Assembly (NCBI GenBank): GCA_964654285.1
Contig: CAZZJC010000021.1
Coordinates: 5,249 to 69,248 of the forward strand
Direction: 5' to 3'
Source: an uncultured Candidatus Kuenenia sp.
GTDB lineage: Bacteria > Planctomycetota > UBA11346
DNA length: 64,000 bases
The position numbers and the translations under genes were made by a program. A model generated the notes under the pieces. That model was given only the letters and a program-made list of their open reading frames with translations. It had not been told where the DNA came from and searched no databases. Positions 1-48,031 of the stretch are shown here, one piece after another; positions within the stretch are counted from its first letter, which is position 1; every line of letters begins with the position of its first letter.

Positions 1-3000
1 CCGAGAATGTCGCCGTCTTCCCCAATGTGACCGCCTGATCCTCGGGCATGCTTGTCATTGCGGGTGCGGTCCCAGTCGGCTTCACGGTCAAAGTCGCAGC
101 ATTCGTCATGGTGATTCCGATGCTATTCGAAACGACCACCCGGAACAACGCACCATTATCCATGATGGATGCCGCGTTTGTGGTGAAGCTCGATGCCGTT
201 GCACCGCTTATCGTGGTCCAGGTCTTGCCAGCATCGTTCGAACGCTGCCATTGGAAGGTCATTGCAGACGCGCTCGTCGCAGAGCATGAGAACATCGCCG
301 GCTTTCCGACAGTAACCTCGTAATTCGCTGGATGTGAGGTGATCGCTGGGATCTCCCCGGGACTCGTTACAGCCAGGACCGCATCATCCGAGACCACACT
401 GCCCGCACGGTTGCTGGCAACCACGCGGAATCTGGCGTTGTGGTCGCCGATGACGGTTGCGGCGGTGATGTACGTCGCCGCGGTCGCACCGCTGATGGCC
501 GTCCACGTTTTGCCAGCATCGTTCGAACGCGACCACTGGAAGGTCGGCGCCGGCGTGCCGCTGGCCGCTGCGGTGAAGGTCGCGGTCTGGCCGACCGTGA
601 CCGACGCGTTGGCGGGTTGAGTGCTGATCGCCGGTGCCACCGTGGGGATGGTGGCCGTCAGGACGGCTACGTTCGATGTCGCGCTGCCTGCACTGTTGCT
701 GGCGACCACGCGGAATCGGGCGTTGTGGTCGCCAATGACCGTTGCCGGGGTGATGTACGTCGCTGCCGTGGCACCGGCGATCGCGGTCCAGGTGCCTCCG
801 TCATCGTTCGAACGCGACCACTGGAAGGTGGGCGCCGGCGTGCCGCTGGCCGCTGCGGTGAAGGTCGCAGTCTGGCCGACCGTGACCGATGCGTTGGCGG
901 GTTGAGTGCTGATCGCCGGTGCCACCGTGGGGACGGTGACGGTCAGGACAGCCGCATTCGACGTGGCATTGCCGGCGCTGTTGCTGGCGACGACGCGGAA
1001 TTGGGCGTTGTTGTCACCGATGACCATCGCGGCGGTGGTGTACGTCGCCGCGGTCGCACCGCTGATGGCCGTCCACGTTTTGCCAGCATCGTTCGAACGC
1101 GACCACTGGAAGGTCGGCGCCGGCGTGCCGCTGGCCGCTGCGGTGAAGGTCGCAGTCTGGCCGACCGTGACCGATGCGTTGGCGGGTTGAGTGCTGATCG
1201 CCGGTGCCACCGTGGGGACGGTGACGGTCAGGACAGCCGCATTCGACGTGGCATTGCCGGCGCTGTTGCTGGCGACGACGCGGAATTGGGCGTTGTTGTC
1301 ACCGATGACCATCGCGGCGGTGGTATACGTCGCCGCGGTCGCACCGCTGATGGCCGTCCACGTTTTGCCTCCATCGTTCGAACGCGACCACTGGAAGGTG
1401 GGCGCCGGCGTGCCGCTGGCCGCTGCGGTGAAGGTCGCGGTCTGGCCGACCGTGACCGACGCGTTGGCGGGTTGAGTGCTGATCGCCGGTGCCACCGTGG
1501 GGATGGTGACCGTCAGGACAGCCGCATTCGACGTGGCATTGCCGGCGCTGTTGCTGGCGACGACGCGGAATTGGGCGTTGTTGTCACCGATGACCATCGC
1601 GGCGGTGGTGTACGTCGCCGCGGTCGCACCGCTGATGGCCGTCCACGTTTTGCCAGCATCGTTCGAACGCGACCACTGGAAGGTGGGTGCAGGCGTGCCA
1701 CTGGCCGCTGCGGTGAAGGTCGCGGTCTGACCGACCGTGACCGACGCGTTGGCGGGTTGAGTGCCGATCGCCGGTGCCACCGTGGGGACGGTGACGGTCA
1801 GGACAGCCGCTTTCGAGGTCGCACTGCCGGCGCTGTTGCTGACCACGACGCGGAATTGGGCGTTATGGTCGCCGATGACCGTCGCCGGGGTAGTGTACGT
1901 CGCTGCCCTGGCACCGACGATCGCGGTCCAGGTGCCTCCGCCATCATTCGAACGCGACCACTGGAAGGTGGGCACCGGCGTCCCACTGGCCGCAACCGTG
2001 AAGGTTGCGGTCTGGCCAACCGTGACCGAAAGGTTGGCGGGCTGAGTGATGATCGCCGGAGCCGCGATGTTGTTCCCCCCCTGGCTGAGTCCGGTTACGG
2101 CAAGCGAGTAATCCTGATTGCCGTATCTCAGCGACCCCTTGTGGCTGACCGTCAGCGTGTAATTCCCCTGCATCGGCGCACTGATCAGAACCTGTTCCAC
2201 GTTATCGGTCGTATTGTCACCAGGAACAGCCTTGCAGTAGATTCCACCCCAATCCGTGTTCAGCGAACCCCGATCGAAGGGCGGATAGAAATCGCTGCCT
2301 ACGACAAATGGCATGACGAAGGGACGATAGACGCTGCCATCTGGGCCGATGAGTCGCAGGTCCAGATCATTCACCAGCGCCCCGGTGCGCGTGGTAATGG
2401 GCAAGCGAACGGAGGAAGCGGGTGCAGGATCAAGCCAGGCCAGGGTCACCCGGATCGGATTTGCTCCATCGCAGGTATAGCTTCGAGTGGAAACGGTTCC
2501 CTGAGCCAGGTTGGATTCCACGATGACCCCGGATGATGGCTGGTCAGCCTGGCGTTTCACGATGCTGCCCGCAGCCAGGACATTCACGTAACCCCAGCCG
2601 AAATTATAGTCCGGACCGGATACCCCCATGTCGTCCGCCGTGTTGATCAATAACGCCTTCAGGGTTGATGAGCGCAGATACTGACCGGGAAAACGTTTAC
2701 GGTAGTAGTCGATCAATACGACTGCACTTCCAGCCGCATTGGGTGATGACATGCTGGTACCGGTTCTACTGGCATAGTTATCATTGGGATAGGTTGATAA
2801 CAGACCTGAACCATTGGCAGTGAGATCCGGCTTGATCCGTCCACCAAAGGTTGGACCCCGGGATGAACTGGATTCCAATCCGACTGGTGCCACCACCCTT
2901 CCCTGGGCATCGCGTTCCAGGTCCAGGGCATTGGCGATGTCGAGACCGTTCTTGCTGATATTATTCATTCCAGCCATGGTATTTAAGGAATTTCCAGCGG

Positions 3001-4201
3001 AAAAGAACTGCAGATAGAAGGGGGTGTCGTATAATGCGCTATCCATGGATGAACTGGAATTATCGTAATAAGGTTCTTCAGTATGGCCATGACCGTCTGC
3101 CGGGCGTGGTCCGATGGCGCCCCAGCTCAGTGACGCATTGCCGACCACTGAACGATCGGGCTGTCCGGACGTATGCATGCCACCATTCAAAATGTGGGAT
3201 CCGTAGAGATTATAATAGGATCGGAACAACACCTCTGGCGCCATCCCCTTGGCCGCGGGATTGATGCCAGTAGCCCCGATGGTTCCAGCGACATGGGCGG
3301 CGTGTTCAGCATTGTACTGGGTACCGTAGCGGCCGATGATGCGCGAAACCGGGTTTGGCCCGGAAGTCATGAACTCGATATGGTCCGGGATCAAGCCAGC
3401 TTCATGCACCTGGACGATGAGCCCTGCTCCAGTAATGACGCCAACCGATGGATCGAAATCGAGGTTTTCCCGCACCCGGTTCGCATTCGTGCTGATGGCG
3501 GCATTGGCATTGGTGGTGGTCATCCACACGGGAACACCAGCCTCGAATCCGACCAGATGACGGCTCCTTCCGTCGGGATCCTGGCGGATCAGGGGGATGC
3601 CGCGATGAACCGCAACCAGGGGGATCAGGGCCGCGGACATGGTCTCCAACCGCTCCACCCAGGCCCCGTGACGTTGGCGTTCATCCGGTTTCAGATGCTG
3701 GCCATAGAGCTCGCGTGCAGCCAGGATGGCCCTGTGCAGGGTCGATTGATCGGTCGGATCCGCCTGGGGATTATCCCTGCGGAATTCCAGGTAACTTTGA
3801 TGATGCGGCGGTGGCAGAGCCTGGGCGATCGCATCCAGATCCTCAGGCATGACGGTTGACCTGCCGATCTGCGGGGTGCGAGCAACCCCGGATGCCTGGG
3901 GCCCGTCGACGGCTGAAAGTCCGCCCACCGGAATGACCCGGGTCGTATCGACTCGGGAACCTGAATCCGCCCCAGGATCAACGCCGACAGGCGTGGAGGC
4001 CGGGAATGACCTCTGCGCGCAGCCGTCCGGATGCCGCAACCCGGTTTCAACGGCTGGATGTTCCGACCCCATGGAACCGACGGCCTCAGGCACAGACGCT
4101 GCGGGTGCCTCCCGCTTCGAATTCCCCTGCTGCAGGAACAATGCGAGGATGAGTACGGCGACGATGGCAAGGCTCGTCAGCGCACGGGTGCGCATGGTCA
4201 T
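1..4201 (-). CDS. Secreted S8 subtilisin-like peptidase with C-terminal tandem Ig-like (95-aa) repeats; 3' end runs off left edge of window (partial)
   Basis: Reverse-strand translation from the ATG at 4199-4201 gives MTMRTRALTSLAIVAVLILALFLQ, which looks like a signal peptide. A GGAG RBS lies just upstream. Downstream are subtilase motifs: H-motif EHAAHVAGT and Ser-motif GTSMSSPNAAG. From about 2050 to 1 the protein is repeated ...PTVAPAISTQPANASVTVGQTATFTAAASGTPAPTFQWSRSNDAGKTWTAISGATAATYTTAA..., which is Ig-like. No stop codon appears before position 1. The gene is absent from the ORF track because no stop lies in the window. Confidence 0.8.
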   Translation of the reverse strand, partial: MTMRTRALTSLAIVAVLILALFLQQGNSKREAPAASVPEAVGSMGSEHPAVETGLRHPDGCAQRSFPASTPVGVDPGADSGSRVDTTRVIPVGGLSAVDGPQASGVARTPQIGRSTVMPEDLDAIAQALPPPHHQSYLEFRRDNPQADPTDQSTLHRAILAARELYGQHLKPDERQRHGAWVERLETMSAALIPLVAVHRGIPLIRQDPDGRSRHLVGFEAGVPVWMTTTNANAAISTNANRVRENLDFDPSVGVITGAGLIVQVHEAGLIPDHIEFMTSGPNPVSRIIGRYGTQYNAEHAAHVAGTIGATGINPAAKGMAPEVLFRSYYNLYGSHILNGGMHTSGQPDRSVVGNASLSWGAIGPRPADGHGHTEEPYYDNSSSSMDSALYDTPFYLQFFSAGNSLNTMAGMNNISKNGLDIANALDLERDAQGRVVAPVGLESSSSRGPTFGGRIKPDLTANGSGLLSTYPNDNYASRTGTSMSSPNAAGSAVVLIDYYRKRFPGQYLRSSTLKALLINTADDMGVSGPDYNFGWGYVNVLAAGSIVKRQADQPSSGVIVESNLAQGTVSTRSYTCDGANPIRVTLAWLDPAPASSVRLPITTRTGALVNDLDLRLIGPDGSVYRPFVMPFVVGSDFYPPFDRGSLNTDWGGIYCKAVPGDNTTDNVEQVLISAPMQGNYTLTVSHKGSLRYGNQDYSLAVTGLSQGGNNIAAPAIITQPANLSVTVGQTATFTVAASGTPVPTFQWSRSNDGGGTWTAIVGARAATYTTPATVIGDHNAQFRVVVSNSAGSATSKAAVLTVTVPTVAPAIGTQPANASVTVGQTATFTAAASGTPAPTFQWSRSNDAGKTWTAISGATAATYTTAAMVIGDNNAQFRVVASNSAGNATSNAAVLTVTIPTVAPAISTQPANASVTVGQTATFTAAASGTPAPTFQWSRSNDGGKTWTAISGATAATYTTAAMVIGDNNAQFRVVASNSAGNATSNAAVLTVTVPTVAPAISTQPANASVTVGQTATFTAAASGTPAPTFQWSRSNDAGKTWTAISGATAATYTTAAMVIGDNNAQFRVVASNSAGNATSNAAVLTVTVPTVAPAISTQPANASVTVGQTATFTAAASGTPAPTFQWSRSNDDGGTWTAIAGATAATYITPATVIGDHNARFRVVASNSAGSATSNVAVLTATIPTVAPAISTQPANASVTVGQTATFTAAASGTPAPTFQWSRSNDAGKTWTAISGATAATYITAATVIGDHNARFRVVASNRAGSVVSDDAVLAVTSPGEIPAITSHPANYEVTVGKPAMFSCSATSASAMTFQWQRSNDAGKTWTTISGATASSFTTNAASIMDNGALFRVVVSNSIGITMTNAATLTVKPTGTAPAMTSMPEDQAVTLGKTATFS
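48..2045 (-). repeat. Tandem array of ~285-bp near-identical units (at least 7 copies) encoding Ig-like domains of the S8 protein
   Basis: Plus-strand ORFs at 339-620, 621-905, 906-1190, 1191-1475, 1476-1730 and 1761-2045 are almost identical 94-aa antisense translations. Units 906-1190 and 1191-1475 differ by about one residue. A degenerate unit lies at 48-323. Confidence 0.9.
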
Positions 4202-4562
4202 GAATGAACTCCAGGAAGGAAAGAGCTGGGATTGATTTCCCGGCAAGCGGATCAGATTGTATCAGTGCGGGCCGGGATCGCGCGTGCCTATTTTGTCGGT
4301 TTCAGGAGGTTTTCATCGTGGCCGATCACACGCGCAGGGATCTGCGTGACATCATCCGGATCCGACCGTATGGCACCTGTCGCCGTGACGCCATGCGCTC
4401 GGCCGGCGCGAGCCGGCGAGACGGTATTCGTCAGGACATCAGGCAAATCATCCGGGCGCTCCTGCCCGTGGTCGCGGATCAGGCCGCAACCCCAACCCCG
4501 GCTTCATTCCCGCCTGGGCGGAGACGAACTGCCTTCCGCCGTCGCGAACGGTCACCGACGGC

Positions 4563-5627: not shown

Positions 5628-6821
5628 CTATCGCGACCGCGGCGCTGTGCGCCGGACCGCATGATCCGTGTTCGACGCCGCACCCGGCGGACCGGCAGGC
5701 CGCAAACCGGAGCCGGCCATGCGCCACAGCGTCGGGGAAGCCCCATATCGCTTGCGGAAGGCTGCGGCAAACGTGGTCGGATGGGAAAAACCGGCGAGAT
5801 GCGAAACGCGTTCGATGGCGTCCTCGCCGTCGAGCAGCCTCTGCGCCGCCCGTTGCAACCGCTGTTCACGCAACCACTGGGCCGGAGGACAGCCGGTGGC
5901 AGCGGTGAACCGGCGCTGAAATTGCACGAGTGACAGCTTGGCCGACCGGGCCAGCCGAGCCAGGCGGATGGGCCCGTCCGAACCAGCCGCCATGCGCATC
6001 GCACGCACCACCGGATCGACCGCCAGCAGATCCGGGGTGGAATCATGGACTTCCAGCACCGGGGGGACCACCACCCGGCGGAATGGCCCGCGGTCTCCCG
6101 AGAATTGCCGATGCAGCAGCAGGGCGGCATTCCAGCCGACCACCGACATGGGAACCGCCAGCCGGGTCGGGATCGGCAGGTTTCCGAGGTCATCGGTCAG
6201 CGTGGATTGGCATCCGACGACCGCATAATCGCGCCCCAGCACCAGACCGACCGCCAGGCATTCCGAGAGGAACCACATCGCGGCGCGTTCCATCGGAATG
6301 AACATGGCCACCGGACCGGAGCGCGACCGCATCCACTCGCCCAGATGCCGGCGCTGAACCTCCTGGCTTGCGTCGCCGGCCAGGGGTTGGAACTGATCGC
6401 AGCTGCGGGCACGGGTCTGCAGGTGGTCGATGAAGGCTTTGCGCCTGACCTCGTAGTGAGGTCTGTTGACCACCCGGTTCAGGTAGGTCGAGATGGACTG
6501 ATACCCGCGCTCCAGCAGGAATTCAGCCGCCTTTCTTCCGATCGCCACATCATCGGAGATGACGCAGGGCAGGCCTTCGCGGTTGTGTTTGAGCGAGACG
6601 CAGGCGATTCCCTGGGCCTGCAGGTCGAGGATGCGCGTGTCATCGAGGCCGCCGACCAACCCATCGACACGGGGCCGGACCGCATGTTGCATGCCGGGAT
6701 CATAGACGACCTGCCAGTCGAGGGCGTGTTGACGGGCGTAGGCGACCGTTCCCCGGACCAGCCCCTGCGCCGACGACTCCAGCGGCTGGCAAACGGCAAT
6801 GATGCGTTTCCCTCGATCCAT
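5628..6821 (-). CDS. XylR-like regulator: periplasmic-binding-protein-like sugar-binding domain fused to AraC-type HTH
   Basis: N-terminal MDRGKRIIAVCQPLESSAQGLVRGTVAYARQHALDWQVV... resembles a LacI/PBP-type sugar-binding fold. C-terminal ...SLVQFQRRFTAATGCPPAQWLREQRLQRAAQRLLDGEDAIERVSHLAGFSHPTTFAAAFRKRYGASPTLWR is an AraC HTH. Confidence 0.7.
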   Translation of the reverse strand: MDRGKRIIAVCQPLESSAQGLVRGTVAYARQHALDWQVVYDPGMQHAVRPRVDGLVGGLDDTRILDLQAQGIACVSLKHNREGLPCVISDDVAIGRKAAEFLLERGYQSISTYLNRVVNRPHYEVRRKAFIDHLQTRARSCDQFQPLAGDASQEVQRRHLGEWMRSRSGPVAMFIPMERAAMWFLSECLAVGLVLGRDYAVVGCQSTLTDDLGNLPIPTRLAVPMSVVGWNAALLLHRQFSGDRGPFRRVVVPPVLEVHDSTPDLLAVDPVVRAMRMAAGSDGPIRLARLARSAKLSLVQFQRRFTAATGCPPAQWLREQRLQRAAQRLLDGEDAIERVSHLAGFSHPTTFAAAFRKRYGASPTLWRMAGSGLRPAGPPGAASNTDHAVRRTAPRSR

Positions 6822-9167: not shown

Positions 9168-10577
9168 CTAGGCGTCGTAGTAGAGGTAGAACTCGTAGGG
9201 ATTCGGGCGCAGCTTCATCGGCTCGACCTCGTTCTCGCGCTTGTAGGCGACGTAGGTGTCGATGAAGTCCTCGGTGAAGACGTCGCCGGCGGTGAGCCAC
9301 GACTTGTCGGCGAGCATCTCATCGATGGCCTGGCCGAGGCTGTCGCAGGTGCCGGGGATGGTGGCCAGCTCCTCGGGCGGCAGGTCGTAGATGTTCTTGT
9401 CCATCGGCTTGCCCGGATCGATCTGGTTCTTGATGCCGTCGATCATGGCCATGGTGATGGCAGCGGTGACCAGGTAGGGGCTGCCGCTGGCGTCGGGGCA
9501 GCGGAACTCGAAGCGGCGGGCCTTGTCGCTGCCGACGTGCGGGATGCGCACCGACGCCGAGCGGTTGCTGGCCGAGTAGGCCAGGTTCACCGGAGCCTCG
9601 TAGTGGGGGACCAGGCGGCGGTAGCTGTTCACCGAGGGGTTGGTGAAGGCCTGGATCGAGCGGCCGTGCTTGAGGATGCCGCCGATGGCCCAGATCGCCT
9701 GCTGGCTGAGCTTGGCGTAGGCGTTGCCGGCGAAGAGGTTCTTGCCGTCCTTCCAGATCGAGGTGTGGCAGTGCATGCCGCTGCCGTTGTCGCCGAACAT
9801 CGGCTTCGGCATGAAGGTCGCCGTCTTGCCGTGCTGGTAGCAGGTGTTCTTGACCGCGTACTTGTAGAGGTGGACCAGGTCGCCCGCGGTGATCGCGGTG
9901 CCGAACTTGATGCCGATCTCGCACTGGCCGGGGCTCGCCACCTCGTGGTGGTGGAGATCCACTTCCATGCCCATGGTCTGCATGTTGGTGGTGATCTCGC
10001 TGCGCAGGTCCATCAGGGTGTCCTGCGGGGTCGCCGGGTAGTAGCCCTGCTTGTGGCGGATCTTGTGGCCGAGGTTGACGCCGTCATCGACGCCCATGTT
10101 CCACGGGGCCTCGACCGAATCGAGGTGGTAGAACGAGCCCTGCGGCGCGCTCTGGTAGCGGATCGAATCGAAGATGAAGAATTCGGGCTCGGGGCCGAAG
10201 TAGATGGTGTCGCCGATGCCAGTGGACTTGAGGTAGTCCTGGGCCTTGCGGGCGATGGAACGGGCGTCGCGCGAGTAGCGCTGGCCGGTGCGCGGATCGA
10301 AGATGTCGCCGAAGAAGCAGATCGTGGGCTGCTCGCGGAACGGGTCGATGAAGACCGACGCCGGATCCGGCTTGATCAGCATGTCCGACTTCTCGATGCC
10401 CTGCCAGCCGCGGATCGAGCTGCCGTCGAACGGCAGGCCGTCCTCGAAGATCGACGCCTCGAGCCGGCGCGCGACGATCGTGAAGTGCTGGAGGGTGCCG
10501 AAGATGTCGCCGAACATGATGTCGACGTACTTGGCGCCGTGGTCTTTGGCGAGCTGGAGGGCTTTCGCAACGCTCAT
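9168..10577 (-). CDS. glnA: Glutamine synthetase type I
   Basis: MSVAKALQLAKDHGAKYVDIMFGDIFG... continues to ...KPMFGDNGSGMHCHTSIWKDGKNLFAG...NPSVNSYRRLVPHYEAPVNLAYSASNRSASVRIP, which are canonical GS-I motifs. A GGGAGAA RBS precedes the ATG at 10577. The ORF-track start at 10751 is an upstream extension. Confidence 0.95.
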   Translation of the reverse strand: MSVAKALQLAKDHGAKYVDIMFGDIFGTLQHFTIVARRLEASIFEDGLPFDGSSIRGWQGIEKSDMLIKPDPASVFIDPFREQPTICFFGDIFDPRTGQRYSRDARSIARKAQDYLKSTGIGDTIYFGPEPEFFIFDSIRYQSAPQGSFYHLDSVEAPWNMGVDDGVNLGHKIRHKQGYYPATPQDTLMDLRSEITTNMQTMGMEVDLHHHEVASPGQCEIGIKFGTAITAGDLVHLYKYAVKNTCYQHGKTATFMPKPMFGDNGSGMHCHTSIWKDGKNLFAGNAYAKLSQQAIWAIGGILKHGRSIQAFTNPSVNSYRRLVPHYEAPVNLAYSASNRSASVRIPHVGSDKARRFEFRCPDASGSPYLVTAAITMAMIDGIKNQIDPGKPMDKNIYDLPPEELATIPGTCDSLGQAIDEMLADKSWLTAGDVFTEDFIDTYVAYKRENEVEPMKLRPNPYEFYLYYDA

Positions 10578-41211: not shown

Positions 41212-41832
41212 ATGACCCTGGCCTGCGATTGCGACGGCACCCTGCTTGATTCGGAACGGGTGGTGAAGGAGGTCTTCCTCGGCATCCTCGCCGAGATCGG
41301 CCATCCGATGGATGGTGATCTCTACGACACCTTCATCGGGTCACCGGATCACGACATCCGGTACCTGCTCGCACATGGCATGGATCGGTAGACCCTGGAT
41401 CGGCTCTATGCCCGGTTCAATGAAGCCATGGACATCTGCGAGATTCCACTCAAGCCCGGTGTGGTGGACCTGCTCGATCATGGCCGATCGATCGGCCATC
41501 GTCTGGTGCTGGCCACCAGTTCGTCACGTCGCCATGTCGACCGCTACCTGCCGCGGGAGGTCGTGGCGCGGTTCGATCTGATCCTGACCAAGGAATCCGT
41601 GACGCGCCGCAAGCCGGACCCGGAGATCTACCGCCAGGCCAAGGCCTCCTTCCCGGATCAGCGCCTGGTGGTGCTGGAGGATTCGCCGCACGGGATCACC
41701 GCCGCGATCGGGGCCGGGGCGACGTGCTACCTCATCCCGGACCTCGCCCGCTGCGACGCCGCCTGCCGGGCGACCTGCGCCGGGGTGGTCGCTGCGGCCC
41801 GGGATCTCATCGGCCGCCTGCCGCCACCGTGA
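41212..41832 (+). pseudogene. HAD-superfamily hydrolase (beta-phosphoglucomutase-like) with in-frame TAG at codon 60 (41389-41391)
   Basis: Motif I is MTLACDCDGTLLDSE. Translation runs ...YLLAHGMDR*TLDRLYARFNEAMD..., and the same frame continues with motif II LVLATSSSR, motif III RRKPDPE and motif IV LEDSPHG. The ORF track only calls the downstream part (41428..41832). Confidence 0.6.
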
Positions 41833-41838
41833 ACCGAT

Positions 41839-42963: not shown

Positions 42964-43755
42964 ATGTTCCGACGCAAGACCGATCAGATCTTCGACACGC
43001 TCCAGGCGGTGCAGCGGCGCATCACGGAACAGGGTGGTGCGCCACCACGTCCGCCGGTGCCGGCCGCCCCGGCAGTGCGCCCGATCCTGCCCATCGGCAA
43101 GGCCCGGCCGACGACCGAGATCCCGCCACCACCACCCGGCCCGCCACCGTCTCCGGTTCGTGCCGCAGGTCCGCCACCCCTCTCGCCGCCACCGGCTCCA
43201 CCGACGCTGTCGCCGCAGTCCGCCCTGGCGCGGGCCGCGACCCCGACCGCCTACACCCCCAATCCGCCAGGCGGCCCGCCACCGTTGATCACCTTGTCGC
43301 TGTCGCAGGTCATCACCGTGCTGATCGCCTGGCTGGGATCGCTCGCCCTGGTCTGGGTGGTCGCAGCCCGGTCGAGCGATCCCATCCCACCACGCGAACC
43401 CACGTCGTCCGGCAACGCCTACCAGCAGCAGCCGGCCGAGTTCCAGCCTAAACGCCACATCATCGTTTTGACCTCGGTGCCCAGCACGGAAGAGCGCTCG
43501 GTGAAGGCGCTGCAGGCCCAATGCGAGCAGCTCAACGAGCAGATGCGCCGCAGCAAATCCGGAAAGTACAAGCCGTGGTTCAGCGTCCGCCCGCACCCGA
43601 ACGGCCAGACCGAACTGATCTTCGGCGCGACCGAAGGCCAGGACGGCATCGATCGCAGCCAACCGCAGTGGGCGGACTTCTTCCGCTTGCTCGCAGCGCC
43701 GGCCAAGGACAAGGGCGCGGGGTTCAGCCGGGCGCAGTGGCGGCCGGTGAATTGA
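42964..43755 (+). CDS. Hypothetical proline-rich membrane protein
   Basis: A Pro-rich stretch (PPPPPGPPPSPVRAAGPPPLSPPPAPP), then a TM helix (ITVLIAWLGSLALVWVVAA), then a ~110-aa C-terminal domain. Confidence 0.5.
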   Translation: MFRRKTDQIFDTLQAVQRRITEQGGAPPRPPVPAAPAVRPILPIGKARPTTEIPPPPPGPPPSPVRAAGPPPLSPPPAPPTLSPQSALARAATPTAYTPNPPGGPPPLITLSLSQVITVLIAWLGSLALVWVVAARSSDPIPPREPTSSGNAYQQQPAEFQPKRHIIVLTSVPSTEERSVKALQAQCEQLNEQMRRSKSGKYKPWFSVRPHPNGQTELIFGATEGQDGIDRSQPQWADFFRLLAAPAKDKGAGFSRAQWRPVN

Positions 43756-43778
43756 AACATGACTTGAACTAGGGTGTC

Positions 43779-44249
43779 ATGATCCACAGCGCCGAGGAAT
43801 TTGTCAGACTACGTGACAGCACTGAATTGGCCGAGTATCAGAAGGCGGCATGGGATGAGGCCCCGATCGAAGTGTGGCAGGACGTGATCGCCAAATACCC
43901 GGACTACAAAAAATGGGTGGTTCACAACAAAACCGTTCCTTTGGAAATTCTCGCTCAACTCATCAATGATTCAGACGCTGAGGTCAGGTGCTGGATTGCG
44001 CAAAAACGGAAAATCACATTGGAGATGCAAATGAAATTGGCCAAAGACCCGGAAGAAAACGTTAGGGCGAAATTGATCTACAATGGAAAAATCAATCGAC
44101 AGGTATGGGATGTGCTGAGTCAGGATCCCAGCGCATTCATCCAAAAATCACTGAAAGAAAAACATCAAGCGGACACAGCTATTCATCCGACCGCGGATGT
44201 TGATGCTGGAACCCCCGCCACTTTCACTGCCCAACTTGGTGACCATTGA
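43779..44249 (+). CDS. Low-GC island gene: HEAT/LRV-repeat-like helical protein (possible immunity-type protein)
   Basis: GC drops to about 47% against a ~70% background. MIHSAEEFVRLRDSTELAEYQKAAWDEAPIEVWQDVIAKYPDYKKWVVHNKTVPLEILAQLINDSDAEVRCWIAQKRKITLEMQMKLAKDPEENVRAKLIYNGKI shows repeated xLExLAxDxDxxVRxxIA units. The stop overlaps the start of the next gene (ATGA). Confidence 0.6.
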   Translation: MIHSAEEFVRLRDSTELAEYQKAAWDEAPIEVWQDVIAKYPDYKKWVVHNKTVPLEILAQLINDSDAEVRCWIAQKRKITLEMQMKLAKDPEENVRAKLIYNGKINRQVWDVLSQDPSAFIQKSLKEKHQADTAIHPTADVDAGTPATFTAQLGDH

Positions 44250-44950
44250 CGATGGCCAAGCAGGCGTCCTTCCTCTCCCCCATCTTCCCCCGCCACAACG
44301 TCCTCTGGCCGCTGGTAGCCAGCCGCCTGAAACCGGGCGAGCTCGCGCACGACCGCCACCACCTGGAGCGCGTCTACGTCTGGATGCTGCGCCTCGCACC
44401 GGAAGCCGGCGCGGACGCCGATTGCTGCGGAGCGGCAGCGCTGGTGCATGACCTCGCGTTCATTCCGAAGGAATCGCCGGAGCGCCACCTGGGCGGCGCG
44501 AAGTCGGCGGAACTGGCGGGAGACCTGCTGCGCGCCGCCGGCTACGACGCGACCGAGGTCGACGCCATCGCGGCGGCGGTGGCGACCTCGTCGTGGTCGC
44601 GCGGCCTGGCGCCGGCGAATGCGATCGGCGTGACGCTCCAGGATGCGGATCGGCTGGATGCGATCGGCGCAGTCGGGCTCCTGCGCAACGTCGCCTGCGG
44701 CCAGGACATGGCGCTGCGAAAATCCCCTGACAATGCGGGTGGATTCTACCATCCTGAGGATCCGTTCGCGGCGGGCGGGCGGCCGCTGGACGACCGCACC
44801 TGGGTGGTCGACCACCTGCCGGCGAAGCTGCTGAAACTCGCGGCCGGCATGCGCCTGCCGTCGGCCCAGGCCGAGGCGCAGCGCCGGCACGCGTTCCTGC
44901 TCGCGTTCCGCGCCCAGCTGGCGTCCGAACTCGGTCTGACCCTGCCCTGA
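44246..44950 (+). CDS. YedJ-like HD-domain phosphohydrolase
   Basis: ...HDRHHLERVYVWMLRL...ALVHDLAF...LQDADRLDAIGAVGLLR...EDPFAAGGRPLDDRTWVVDHLPAKLLKL... matches E. coli YedJ-family proteins region by region (HD motif, DADRLEALGAIG, RPLDDK, HFQTKLLKL). Confidence 0.7.
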   Translation: MTMAKQASFLSPIFPRHNVLWPLVASRLKPGELAHDRHHLERVYVWMLRLAPEAGADADCCGAAALVHDLAFIPKESPERHLGGAKSAELAGDLLRAAGYDATEVDAIAAAVATSSWSRGLAPANAIGVTLQDADRLDAIGAVGLLRNVACGQDMALRKSPDNAGGFYHPEDPFAAGGRPLDDRTWVVDHLPAKLLKLAAGMRLPSAQAEAQRRHAFLLAFRAQLASELGLTLP

Positions 44951-47739: not shown

Positions 47740-48031
47740 AGGGCACACCATGGCCGACCAGCCCGCCATCGTCTTCAACGGCACTGCGATCCCGGCGACC
47801 CCGACCACGCCGGGGAGCGATCTGCTCGGGCTGATGCTCGACGCCAAGGCGAACGTGCGGTTCCTCTGCATGGGCGGTTCGTGCCGGCAATGCCGGGTGG
47901 AACTGGTCTCGGGCGGCGAGCATCTCGAACCCAAGTCGGACGGCGAAGCGTGGGGTTGCCCGGATGATGGCGCGCGTCTCGCCTGCCAAGCCATCCATCG
48001 CGGCACCGGCACCGTGGTGCTCAAGCAATGA
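47740..48031 (+). CDS. Small 2Fe-2S ferredoxin-like protein
   Basis: MADQPAIVFNGTAIPA...CMGGSCRQCRV...LACQA has a CX4CX2C...C pattern. A GGGAGAGGG RBS is present. The stop overlaps the start of the next gene (ATGA). Confidence 0.6.

Follow-up and report, generated by a model that had tools for sequence, protein, structure and literature searches.

A low-GC helical-repeat gene between two conserved neighbours, probably an acquired orphan immunity gene of an Rhs-type polymorphic-toxin system

The locus and its composition

The window, by which we mean the whole 64-kb stretch of DNA analysed here, carries on its forward strand, at 43779-44249, an open frame for a protein of 156 aa, with ATG as its start and TGA as its stop. 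We refer to it as the LRV gene, after the repeat type of its family. Its neighbours are tyrS, a GNAT gene, a HAD gene, the gene of a membrane protein, the gene of an HD-domain phosphohydrolase and leuS; the features that matter for the argument are collected in Table 1.

Table 1. Features of the LRV locus and of related loci. Coordinates refer to the window, except in the last row, where they refer to the loci named.
Feature	Position	Strand	Basis and remarks
Resident divergent neighbour, 310 aa	41839..42771	-	Gene call on contig L001; part of a three-gene synteny block
Resident upstream gene, 263 aa	42964..43755	+	ORF; syntenic in 5 lineages
Insertion in the broad sense, 532 nt without counterpart in L004	43756..44287		blastn and MAFFT against L004
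LRV/HEAT-like helical-repeat gene	43779..44249	+	ORF, GC 48.4%, GC3 54%, homologues, AF2; read as a probable orphan Rhs-type immunity gene
Family-homologous core, residues 1-135	43779..44183	+	Homologues end at ~130-135 (alignment A2); helices 5 to 135
C-terminal tail, 21 residues	44184..44249	+	Missing in most family members (alignment A2); predicted disordered
10-nt direct repeat CCCCCGCCAC	44212..44221 (second copy 44287-44296)	+	Exact; repeat family D12
Resident HD-domain phosphohydrolase, 232 aa	44252..44950	+	Pfam HD 26.2 bits (cut-off 22)
Toxin domain, examples	L002 7727-7996; L018 6732-7001; L064 982-1251; 21 further loci		

The LRV gene is compositionally foreign. Its GC content is 48.4%, compared with 68.4% for the window as a whole, and over all stretches of 471 nt in the window, which have a mean of 68.5% and a standard deviation of 4.5%, it lies about 4.5 standard deviations under the mean. 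The window-wide minimum for that length is 47.8%, starting at 43741; stretches equally low in GC number 34 out of 63,530, and each of them overlaps the LRV gene. In steps of 150 nt the fall begins at about 43740-43800 and has recovered by about 44225-44300, so the island is one gene wide. By codon position, the GC content of the LRV gene is 56/35/54%, against 77/51/87% in the HD gene, 67/58/83% in the upstream gene and 66/46/95% in leuS. The low GC is therefore not merely a matter of amino-acid composition, because GC at third positions (GC3) is 54% where the neighbours have 83-95%. The first-pass annotation had described a drop from about 70% to about 47% across exactly one 156-aa gene, and both the sliding-window profile and the codon-position check bear it out: the profile is not homogeneous and the LRV gene is its minimum.

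The second low-GC stretch of the window is at 2378-3476 (minimum 50%), in the protease part of a large ORF at the window start. This ORF (2-4261, reverse strand) leaves the window at its start and encodes at least 1420 aa, with a subtilase-like HVAGTIGATG motif and a tandem repeat at 397-2063 that comprises 5.8 copies of 285 nt (95 aa, Ig-like) at 90% identity.

The membrane protein encoded upstream of the LRV gene has a Pro-rich N-terminal half, one predicted transmembrane helix (LITLSLSQVITVLIAWLGSLALVWVVAA, read from the sequence) and a C-terminal domain of about 100 aa. It has no match in Pfam, NCBIfam or PADLOC, and it is 66% identical over its full length to its counterpart on the related contig L004. 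The HD protein downstream aligns over nearly its whole length with NCBIfam PRK10119 (E 1.4e-31), scoring 109.8 bits against a cut-off of 286. It had been called a YedJ-like hydrolase, a label of which the homology to PRK10119 stands and the equivalog assignment, at this score, does not. It has 521 homologues at E<=1e-30, some of them named as proteins of Planctomycetes MAGs.

The LRV gene is tightly fitted between these two, starting 23 nt past the upstream stop and ending 2 nt before the HD start. The downstream junction reads GAC CAT TGA CG ATG GCC, with the TGA of the LRV gene at 44247-44249. The HD gene starts either at the ATG at 44252, the gene caller's choice on the duplicate contig L001, which leaves the 2-nt gap, or at a TTG at 44246, which gives a TTGA overlap; the ATGA overlap of stop and start reported earlier is not what the junction shows. 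With the two genes so tightly juxtaposed, translational coupling is possible. Co-transcription is probable, because of the 23-nt and 2-nt spacing and because the forward strand between 42700 and 45200 showed no promoter- or terminator-like site, and the LRV gene would thus be transcribed within the resident operon.

No tRNA or Rfam match was found in the 64-kb window, hence no tRNA or structured-RNA integration site, and no integrase or recombinase occurs among the ORFs neighbouring the LRV gene. PADLOC returned no match for the upstream, LRV and HD genes, and on that ground a role of the locus in anti-phage defence was set aside. In the nearby HAD hydrolase gene (41212-41832, forward strand) an in-frame TAG at 41389-41391 splits the frame into ORFs of 59 aa and 134 aa; L004 has CAG at this codon and a single ORF of 206 aa, and the TAG is either a nonsense mutation, making the gene a pseudogene, or a sequencing error.

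The empty site in related genomes

A genome scan with the HD protein gave two related loci, L004 and L005. The flanks on L004 show 81-90% DNA identity to the window and its HD protein 93% amino-acid identity, while L005 comes from a Planctomycetota MAG with an HD protein 64% identical to that of the window. At both loci the upstream gene adjoins the HD gene: on L004 its TGA is followed by 5 nt and the GTG of the HD gene, and on L005 the two overlap as TAAGTG. The same trio of a reverse-strand gene of ~300 aa, a forward-strand gene of ~257-273 aa and the forward-strand HD gene, with nothing between, recurs on L101 (of the L004 type), L102/L103, L104 and L105/L106. The HD proteins of the last three groups are 70%, 69% and 67% identical to that of the window, respectively. 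By tblastn the 310-aa neighbour keeps its relative position, at 88% identity in L004 and 39-44% in L102-L106. The syntenic relatives have GC contents of 65-74%.

Searches with tblastn found no LRV homologue in L004/L101, L005, L102/L103, L104 or L105/L106. Five syntenic lineages, whose HD proteins range from 93% down to 64% identity, thus have the trio without the LRV gene, and by parsimony this implies a single-gene insertion on the lineage of the window. Because the GC3 of the LRV gene is very low, the acquisition is taken to be recent. The earlier suggestion of a recently acquired gene placed just upstream of a resident one, together with the proposed check on whether the orthologous loci of relatives lack it, is thus upheld. 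A second assembly, contig L001 (Logan, run SRR6262237), has the identical arrangement, though it may stem from the same reads.

The insertion can be delimited closely against L004. Homology is lost past the upstream stop and is back at CCCCGCCAC, position 44288, so that 43756-44287 stands for about 34 nt of L004. The HD protein of the window begins SFLSPIFPRH, which resembles VFPEPRFARH in L005; this suggests that the native 5' end of the HD gene was mostly kept, and that translation would now start five codons further upstream. The second copy of the 10-nt repeat CCCCCGCCAC sits where L004 homology resumes, and the repeat may be junction microhomology or may be due to chance, the number of chance 10-mers expected in 1.2 kb of GC-rich DNA being of order 1 by our own estimate. 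A target-site duplication or inverted repeats of a mobile element were also considered and rejected: only this repeat, at 44212 and 44287, came to light, and it is possibly a chance one.

Other differences between the two genomes lie close by. On L004, the 3' half of the upstream gene (5640-6000, corresponding to about 43440-43755 in the window) is itself low in GC, at 47-50% in a contig of 67% GC. The C-terminal domain of the upstream protein is about 50% identical between window and L004, where the flanking DNA is 81-90% identical. In both lineages, the junction of the LRV insertion seems to act as a hot spot of recombination. L004 also has a 246-aa methyltransferase-like ORF at 2906-3646, lacking at 41833/41834 of the window, and about 390 extra nucleotides at 9757-10146, lacking at 48027/48028; these extra segments imply that indels at gene boundaries are frequent between the two genomes. 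The L004 contig (CAMCMZ010000007.1) is titled Candidatus Kuenenia stuttgartiensis, yet it has 67% GC and its HD protein groups with proteins of high-GC Planctomycetes MAGs. The genus Kuenenia has a GC content of about 41%. The bin label of L004 thus looks doubtful, as if the bin were mislabelled.

The LRV protein

Taken by itself, the window protein stays below the Pfam thresholds, with 20.9 bits for HEAT (PF02985; cut-off 23.5) and 12.9 bits for LRV (PF01816; cut-off 21.6). Homologues in its family clear the LRV threshold (P0029 with 53 bits and P0018 with 34 bits), and phmmer aligns the window protein over its repeats with PDB 1lrv at E 0.0021. The protein is LRV-like by homology and fold, not by its own Pfam score. 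AF2 with the family alignment gives a model with a pLDDT of 93.9 and ten helices between residues 5 and 135, and with the weak HEAT, LRV and 1lrv matches this agrees with the all-helical repeat product that had been proposed. Against the PDB, Foldseek returned for this model only generic alpha-solenoids (alphaRep, PP2A-A and 1lrv, the last at TM 0.43), all with E >= 0.02, and no known immunity protein.

The core consists of a family-specific N-terminal segment (residues ~1-40) followed by LRV repeats (~42-130). The N-terminal segment is what sets the family apart from other repeat proteins: it is common to all kinds of members described below, and long LRV-repeat proteins match the family profile at positions ~42-130 only. 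In an alignment of 37 sequences (A2) the window protein retains 12 of the 12 family-invariant residues. The frame is accordingly judged intact, because all the invariant residues are kept and residues 1-135 are predicted with confidence as a complete fold.

Residues 136-156 form a tail with a pLDDT of 68-73 and no secondary structure in the model. Within the part that encodes it the GC content is up to 67% (44190-44219). We suggest that the insertion, at its right-hand junction, cost the gene its own stop, and that read-through as far as the next stop in frame, directly ahead of the HD start, would have added the 21-residue disordered tail. At the other end, the N-terminus MIHSAEEFVRLRDSTELAEY is hydrophilic and the first modelled helix begins at residue 5; judged by inspection, this would be a small intracellular protein without a secretion signal.

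The family and its link to Rhs-type toxins

A search of 5.8 billion proteins returned one identical sequence and 42 other clusters at 39-56% identity to the window protein. The homologues are mostly of 130-145 aa (~133 aa), most of them annotated as PF01816, and come from Gorillibacterium, Streptomyces, Aquabacterium, Burkholderiaceae and many metagenomes, which makes for a patchy taxonomy of Firmicutes, Actinobacteria, Burkholderiales and metagenomes. When JGI metagenomes were scanned with the alignment of the family, 217 more occurrences were confirmed, and 80 of these were retrieved. Altogether 90 family loci were compared; eight have too little upstream sequence, which leaves 82 informative ones. 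A profile search of 1.84 billion representatives was dominated by about 20,000 generic LRV-repeat proteins and yields no usable size for the family.

The family adjoins one particular domain. By tblastn and an iterated HMM, the same C-terminal toxin domain of about 85 aa precedes the LRV gene in 24 of the 82 informative loci, always on the same strand. The distance is 0-53 nt in 22 of these loci, 79 nt in one truncated contig (L098) and 524 nt in one. All 24 partners match a single HMM with E values from 1e-16 to 1e-39, and the proteins that carry the domain have RHS repeats, RHS core, PT-HINT, PT-TG or VgrG-like Phage_GPD domains. In an Aquabacterium MAG, for example, the LRV homologue starts 2 nt past the gene of a 1687-aa RHS-repeat protein, and in L018-L020 there is an overlap between it and the end of a PT-HINT protein. 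A Streptomyces homologue belongs to an array of small ORFs that follows a 1749-aa RHS protein. Such carriers have the usual make-up of polymorphic toxins (Zhang et al. 2012, PMC3482391). Because it lies directly downstream of a polymorphic-toxin C-terminal domain, the LRV-family gene is in the classic position of an immunity gene. The first-pass annotation had spoken of the kind of protein that is found as immunity protein in polymorphic-toxin contexts, which has proved apt for this very family.

The remaining 58 informative loci are orphans, with unrelated upstream genes or small ORFs, and among them no other gene was seen to recur as a neighbour. In Gorillibacterium the homologue stands alone. 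Orphan members in L013 (6595-6915), L014 (1194-1514) and L016/L017 occur in same-strand runs of small unannotated ORFs of a poly-immunity-like kind, and the orphan member of L016 has an IS110-type transposase 4 kb away. The window protein is 44-54% identical to toxin-linked members and 38-58% identical to orphans.

A low GC content is common in the family. The LRV gene lies more than 5 GC points under its flanks in 34 of 54 loci and over them in only one, a pattern that would fit a mobile cassette. The difference of -20 points at the window copy is beyond that of any of the 54 loci compared.

The toxin domain

The C-termini of the RHS and PT-HINT proteins share the pattern LW.iTkeGt...FY.S.SDGLWWskD.AGHGGS.WKV..eT.kGLeW..DAD.YGDfIvGKHKG..G.fIPw, with conserved WW, D, AGH, WKV, DADxYGD and GKxKG; the invariant residues include one His, several Asp and several Lys. 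The domain is carried by RHS, RHS+PT-HINT, RHS+PT-TG and VgrG-RHS proteins of Proteobacteria and Actinobacteria. A search for its relatives gave 17 proteins only, all unannotated, and AF2 on 15 of these sequences predicts an all-beta structure with a pLDDT of about 90 in the domain. Neither Pfam (at E<=1) nor NCBIfam has a match for it, and against the PDB there was no sequence-profile relative, the best Foldseek TM score being 0.27. Membership in one of the all-beta Ntox families of Zhang et al. 2012 was considered and dropped, since the comparison of motifs was unconvincing. The domain is a candidate unannotated toxin family, and it is the only part of the case that may be new.

Neither the toxin domain nor RHS or PT-HINT has a homologue in the 64-kb window (best tblastn E 0.12), so that the search for nearby toxin-domain genes suggested earlier came out negative within these bounds. 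The gene next to the window copy on the upstream side, where the toxin lies in linked members, is the resident membrane-protein gene. That this resident protein might itself be a polymorphic toxin with the LRV protein as its immunity was suggested by its C-terminal domain, which is less conserved between window and L004 (~50%) than the protein overall (66%) and is low-GC in L004. The idea was rejected: the relatives have no immunity gene after it, and across the window, L004 and L005 its C-terminal domains are all homologous, and they are unrelated to the actual toxin partner of the family.

Interpretation

We consider it probable that the 156-aa gene is a horizontally acquired orphan immunity gene of an Rhs-type polymorphic-toxin system, inserted between membrane-protein and HD genes that are normally adjacent. 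Immunity is the most likely assignment for the window gene and would rest on family association at 40-58% identity. Its product would be a helical solenoid in the cytoplasm which, as is usual for immunity proteins, binds its toxin, here the ~85-aa domain, and so blocks toxin delivered by neighbouring bacteria. Since there is no toxin in the window, the protection would be against toxins from other bacteria, of the kind on record for orphan immunity genes, in a cell that makes no such toxin itself; the cognate toxin could also lie elsewhere in the genome, outside the 64-kb window. In a more far-reaching form, which we put forward tentatively and hold to have rather less than an even chance, the LRV-type family and the all-beta domain would be an undescribed toxin-immunity pair with a new toxin fold and activity, and the window copy a lone immunity gene "plugged into" a conserved operon, which lost its own stop, took over the tight spacing of the operon and would be constitutively co-expressed with it.

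The most serious competitor is a gene without any benefit, a neutral hitch-hiker or decaying relic of a toxin-immunity cassette that arrived by illegitimate recombination, gives no protection and has kept its frame only because it is recent. The apparent loss of its own stop and the added tail would be expected of such a relic, as would its unameliorated GC, its presence in a single lineage only, and the other indels of this lineage and the nonsense codon in the HAD gene relative to the closest relative. However, the ORF is intact, with every invariant residue and a confidently predicted complete fold over residues 1-135; the preserved tight spacing to the HD gene suggests that it is likely expressed; and orphans are common in the family, which suggests retention. 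We therefore regard a relic as unlikely, though worth keeping in mind. Still less probable, in our judgement, is a role that has nothing to do with toxins, such as that of an adaptor or scaffold, with the immunity link confined to a subset of the family. That 71% of the informative loci have no toxin and place the gene beside unrelated genes speaks for it, as does the nature of LRV/HEAT solenoids, which are generic protein-binding scaffolds: Foldseek hits are of this kind only, and the repeat part of the profile is matched by about 20,000 proteins. But when there is a conserved partner it is always the same toxin domain, upstream, abutting and on the same strand, whereas the orphans offer no other recurrent neighbour, and the N-terminal ~40 residues are family-specific in toxin-linked and orphan members alike.

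The proximity of the LRV and HD genes, with their 2-nt gap or TTGA overlap, had also raised the possibility of a functional two-gene module. This alternative is effectively refuted, and we give it very little credence: in all five related lineages the HD gene does without the LRV gene and abuts the upstream gene just as tightly, and a homologue of the HD gene or of the upstream gene is found in none of the 90 family loci. The least probable explanation of all, almost negligible, is an assembly chimera that places in the genome a gene that is not truly there. The assemblies are of metagenome type and the change in composition is abrupt, but the contig continues on both sides in native high-GC sequence, the insert consists of a single complete ORF exactly between two genes, and the Logan assembly of SRR6262237 repeats the arrangement (possibly from the same reads).

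Read as an acquired immunity gene, the locus offers a clean and dated example of the pick-up of a single antidote gene against the contact-dependent toxins of neighbours, resolved to about 530 nt, with both junctions visible and five "empty-site" relatives available for comparison. The acquisition seems to have needed no mobile-element machinery, and the host, probably a planctomycete, belongs to a community that is either engineered or environmental. Both the toxin domain and the immunity family lie outside Pfam, NCBIfam and PADLOC as searched, and annotating them would improve surveys of the genes of interbacterial warfare. No concept is changed by this, since both orphan immunity genes and immunity proteins of the HEAT type were established before.

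Comparison with known systems

Immunity proteins built of HEAT repeats form a recognised class (Zhang et al. 2012, PMC3482391), and the family described here is like Imm-HEAT in being small, cytoplasmic and all-alpha, built of HEAT/LRV repeats and encoded downstream of a toxin domain on RHS, PT-HINT or VgrG proteins. It shares with polymorphic-toxin immunity proteins a patchy distribution and a GC content below that of its flanks. Imm-HEAT is paired with Tox-REase-7 and Ntox34, the latter described as all-alpha (PMC3482391), whereas the toxin domain of the present family has no Pfam match at E<=1 and is modelled as all-beta, and the window copy has no toxin partner.

Protective orphan immunity genes have been documented (bioRxiv 10.1101/471110; PMC10539506). 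By analogy with the AID clusters (Ross et al. 2019, 10.1101/471110) and with the orphan immunity genes of Serratia Rhs systems (PMC10539506), the window copy would be an immunity-type gene without a toxin, acquired horizontally and expected to protect. AID systems comprise many immunity genes arrayed on mobile elements (10.1101/471110), whereas the window has one gene in an operon of housekeeping type, and neither an integrase nor a tRNA or array lies near it.

The LRV protein of Azotobacter vinelandii (PDB 1lrv; Pfam LRV PF01816, LRV_2 PF25591) has the same type of repeat, but the window protein, much the shorter of the two, lacks the Fe-S domain, starts with a segment specific to its family and stays below the Pfam cut-offs for LRV and HEAT. 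The comparison with YedJ (PRK10119) concerns the HD gene only: the HD domain is common to both, the HD protein is a homologue and not an orthologue of YedJ, and this homology is unrelated to the function of the LRV gene, for which the orphan immunity genes of Rhs-type systems are the probable counterpart.
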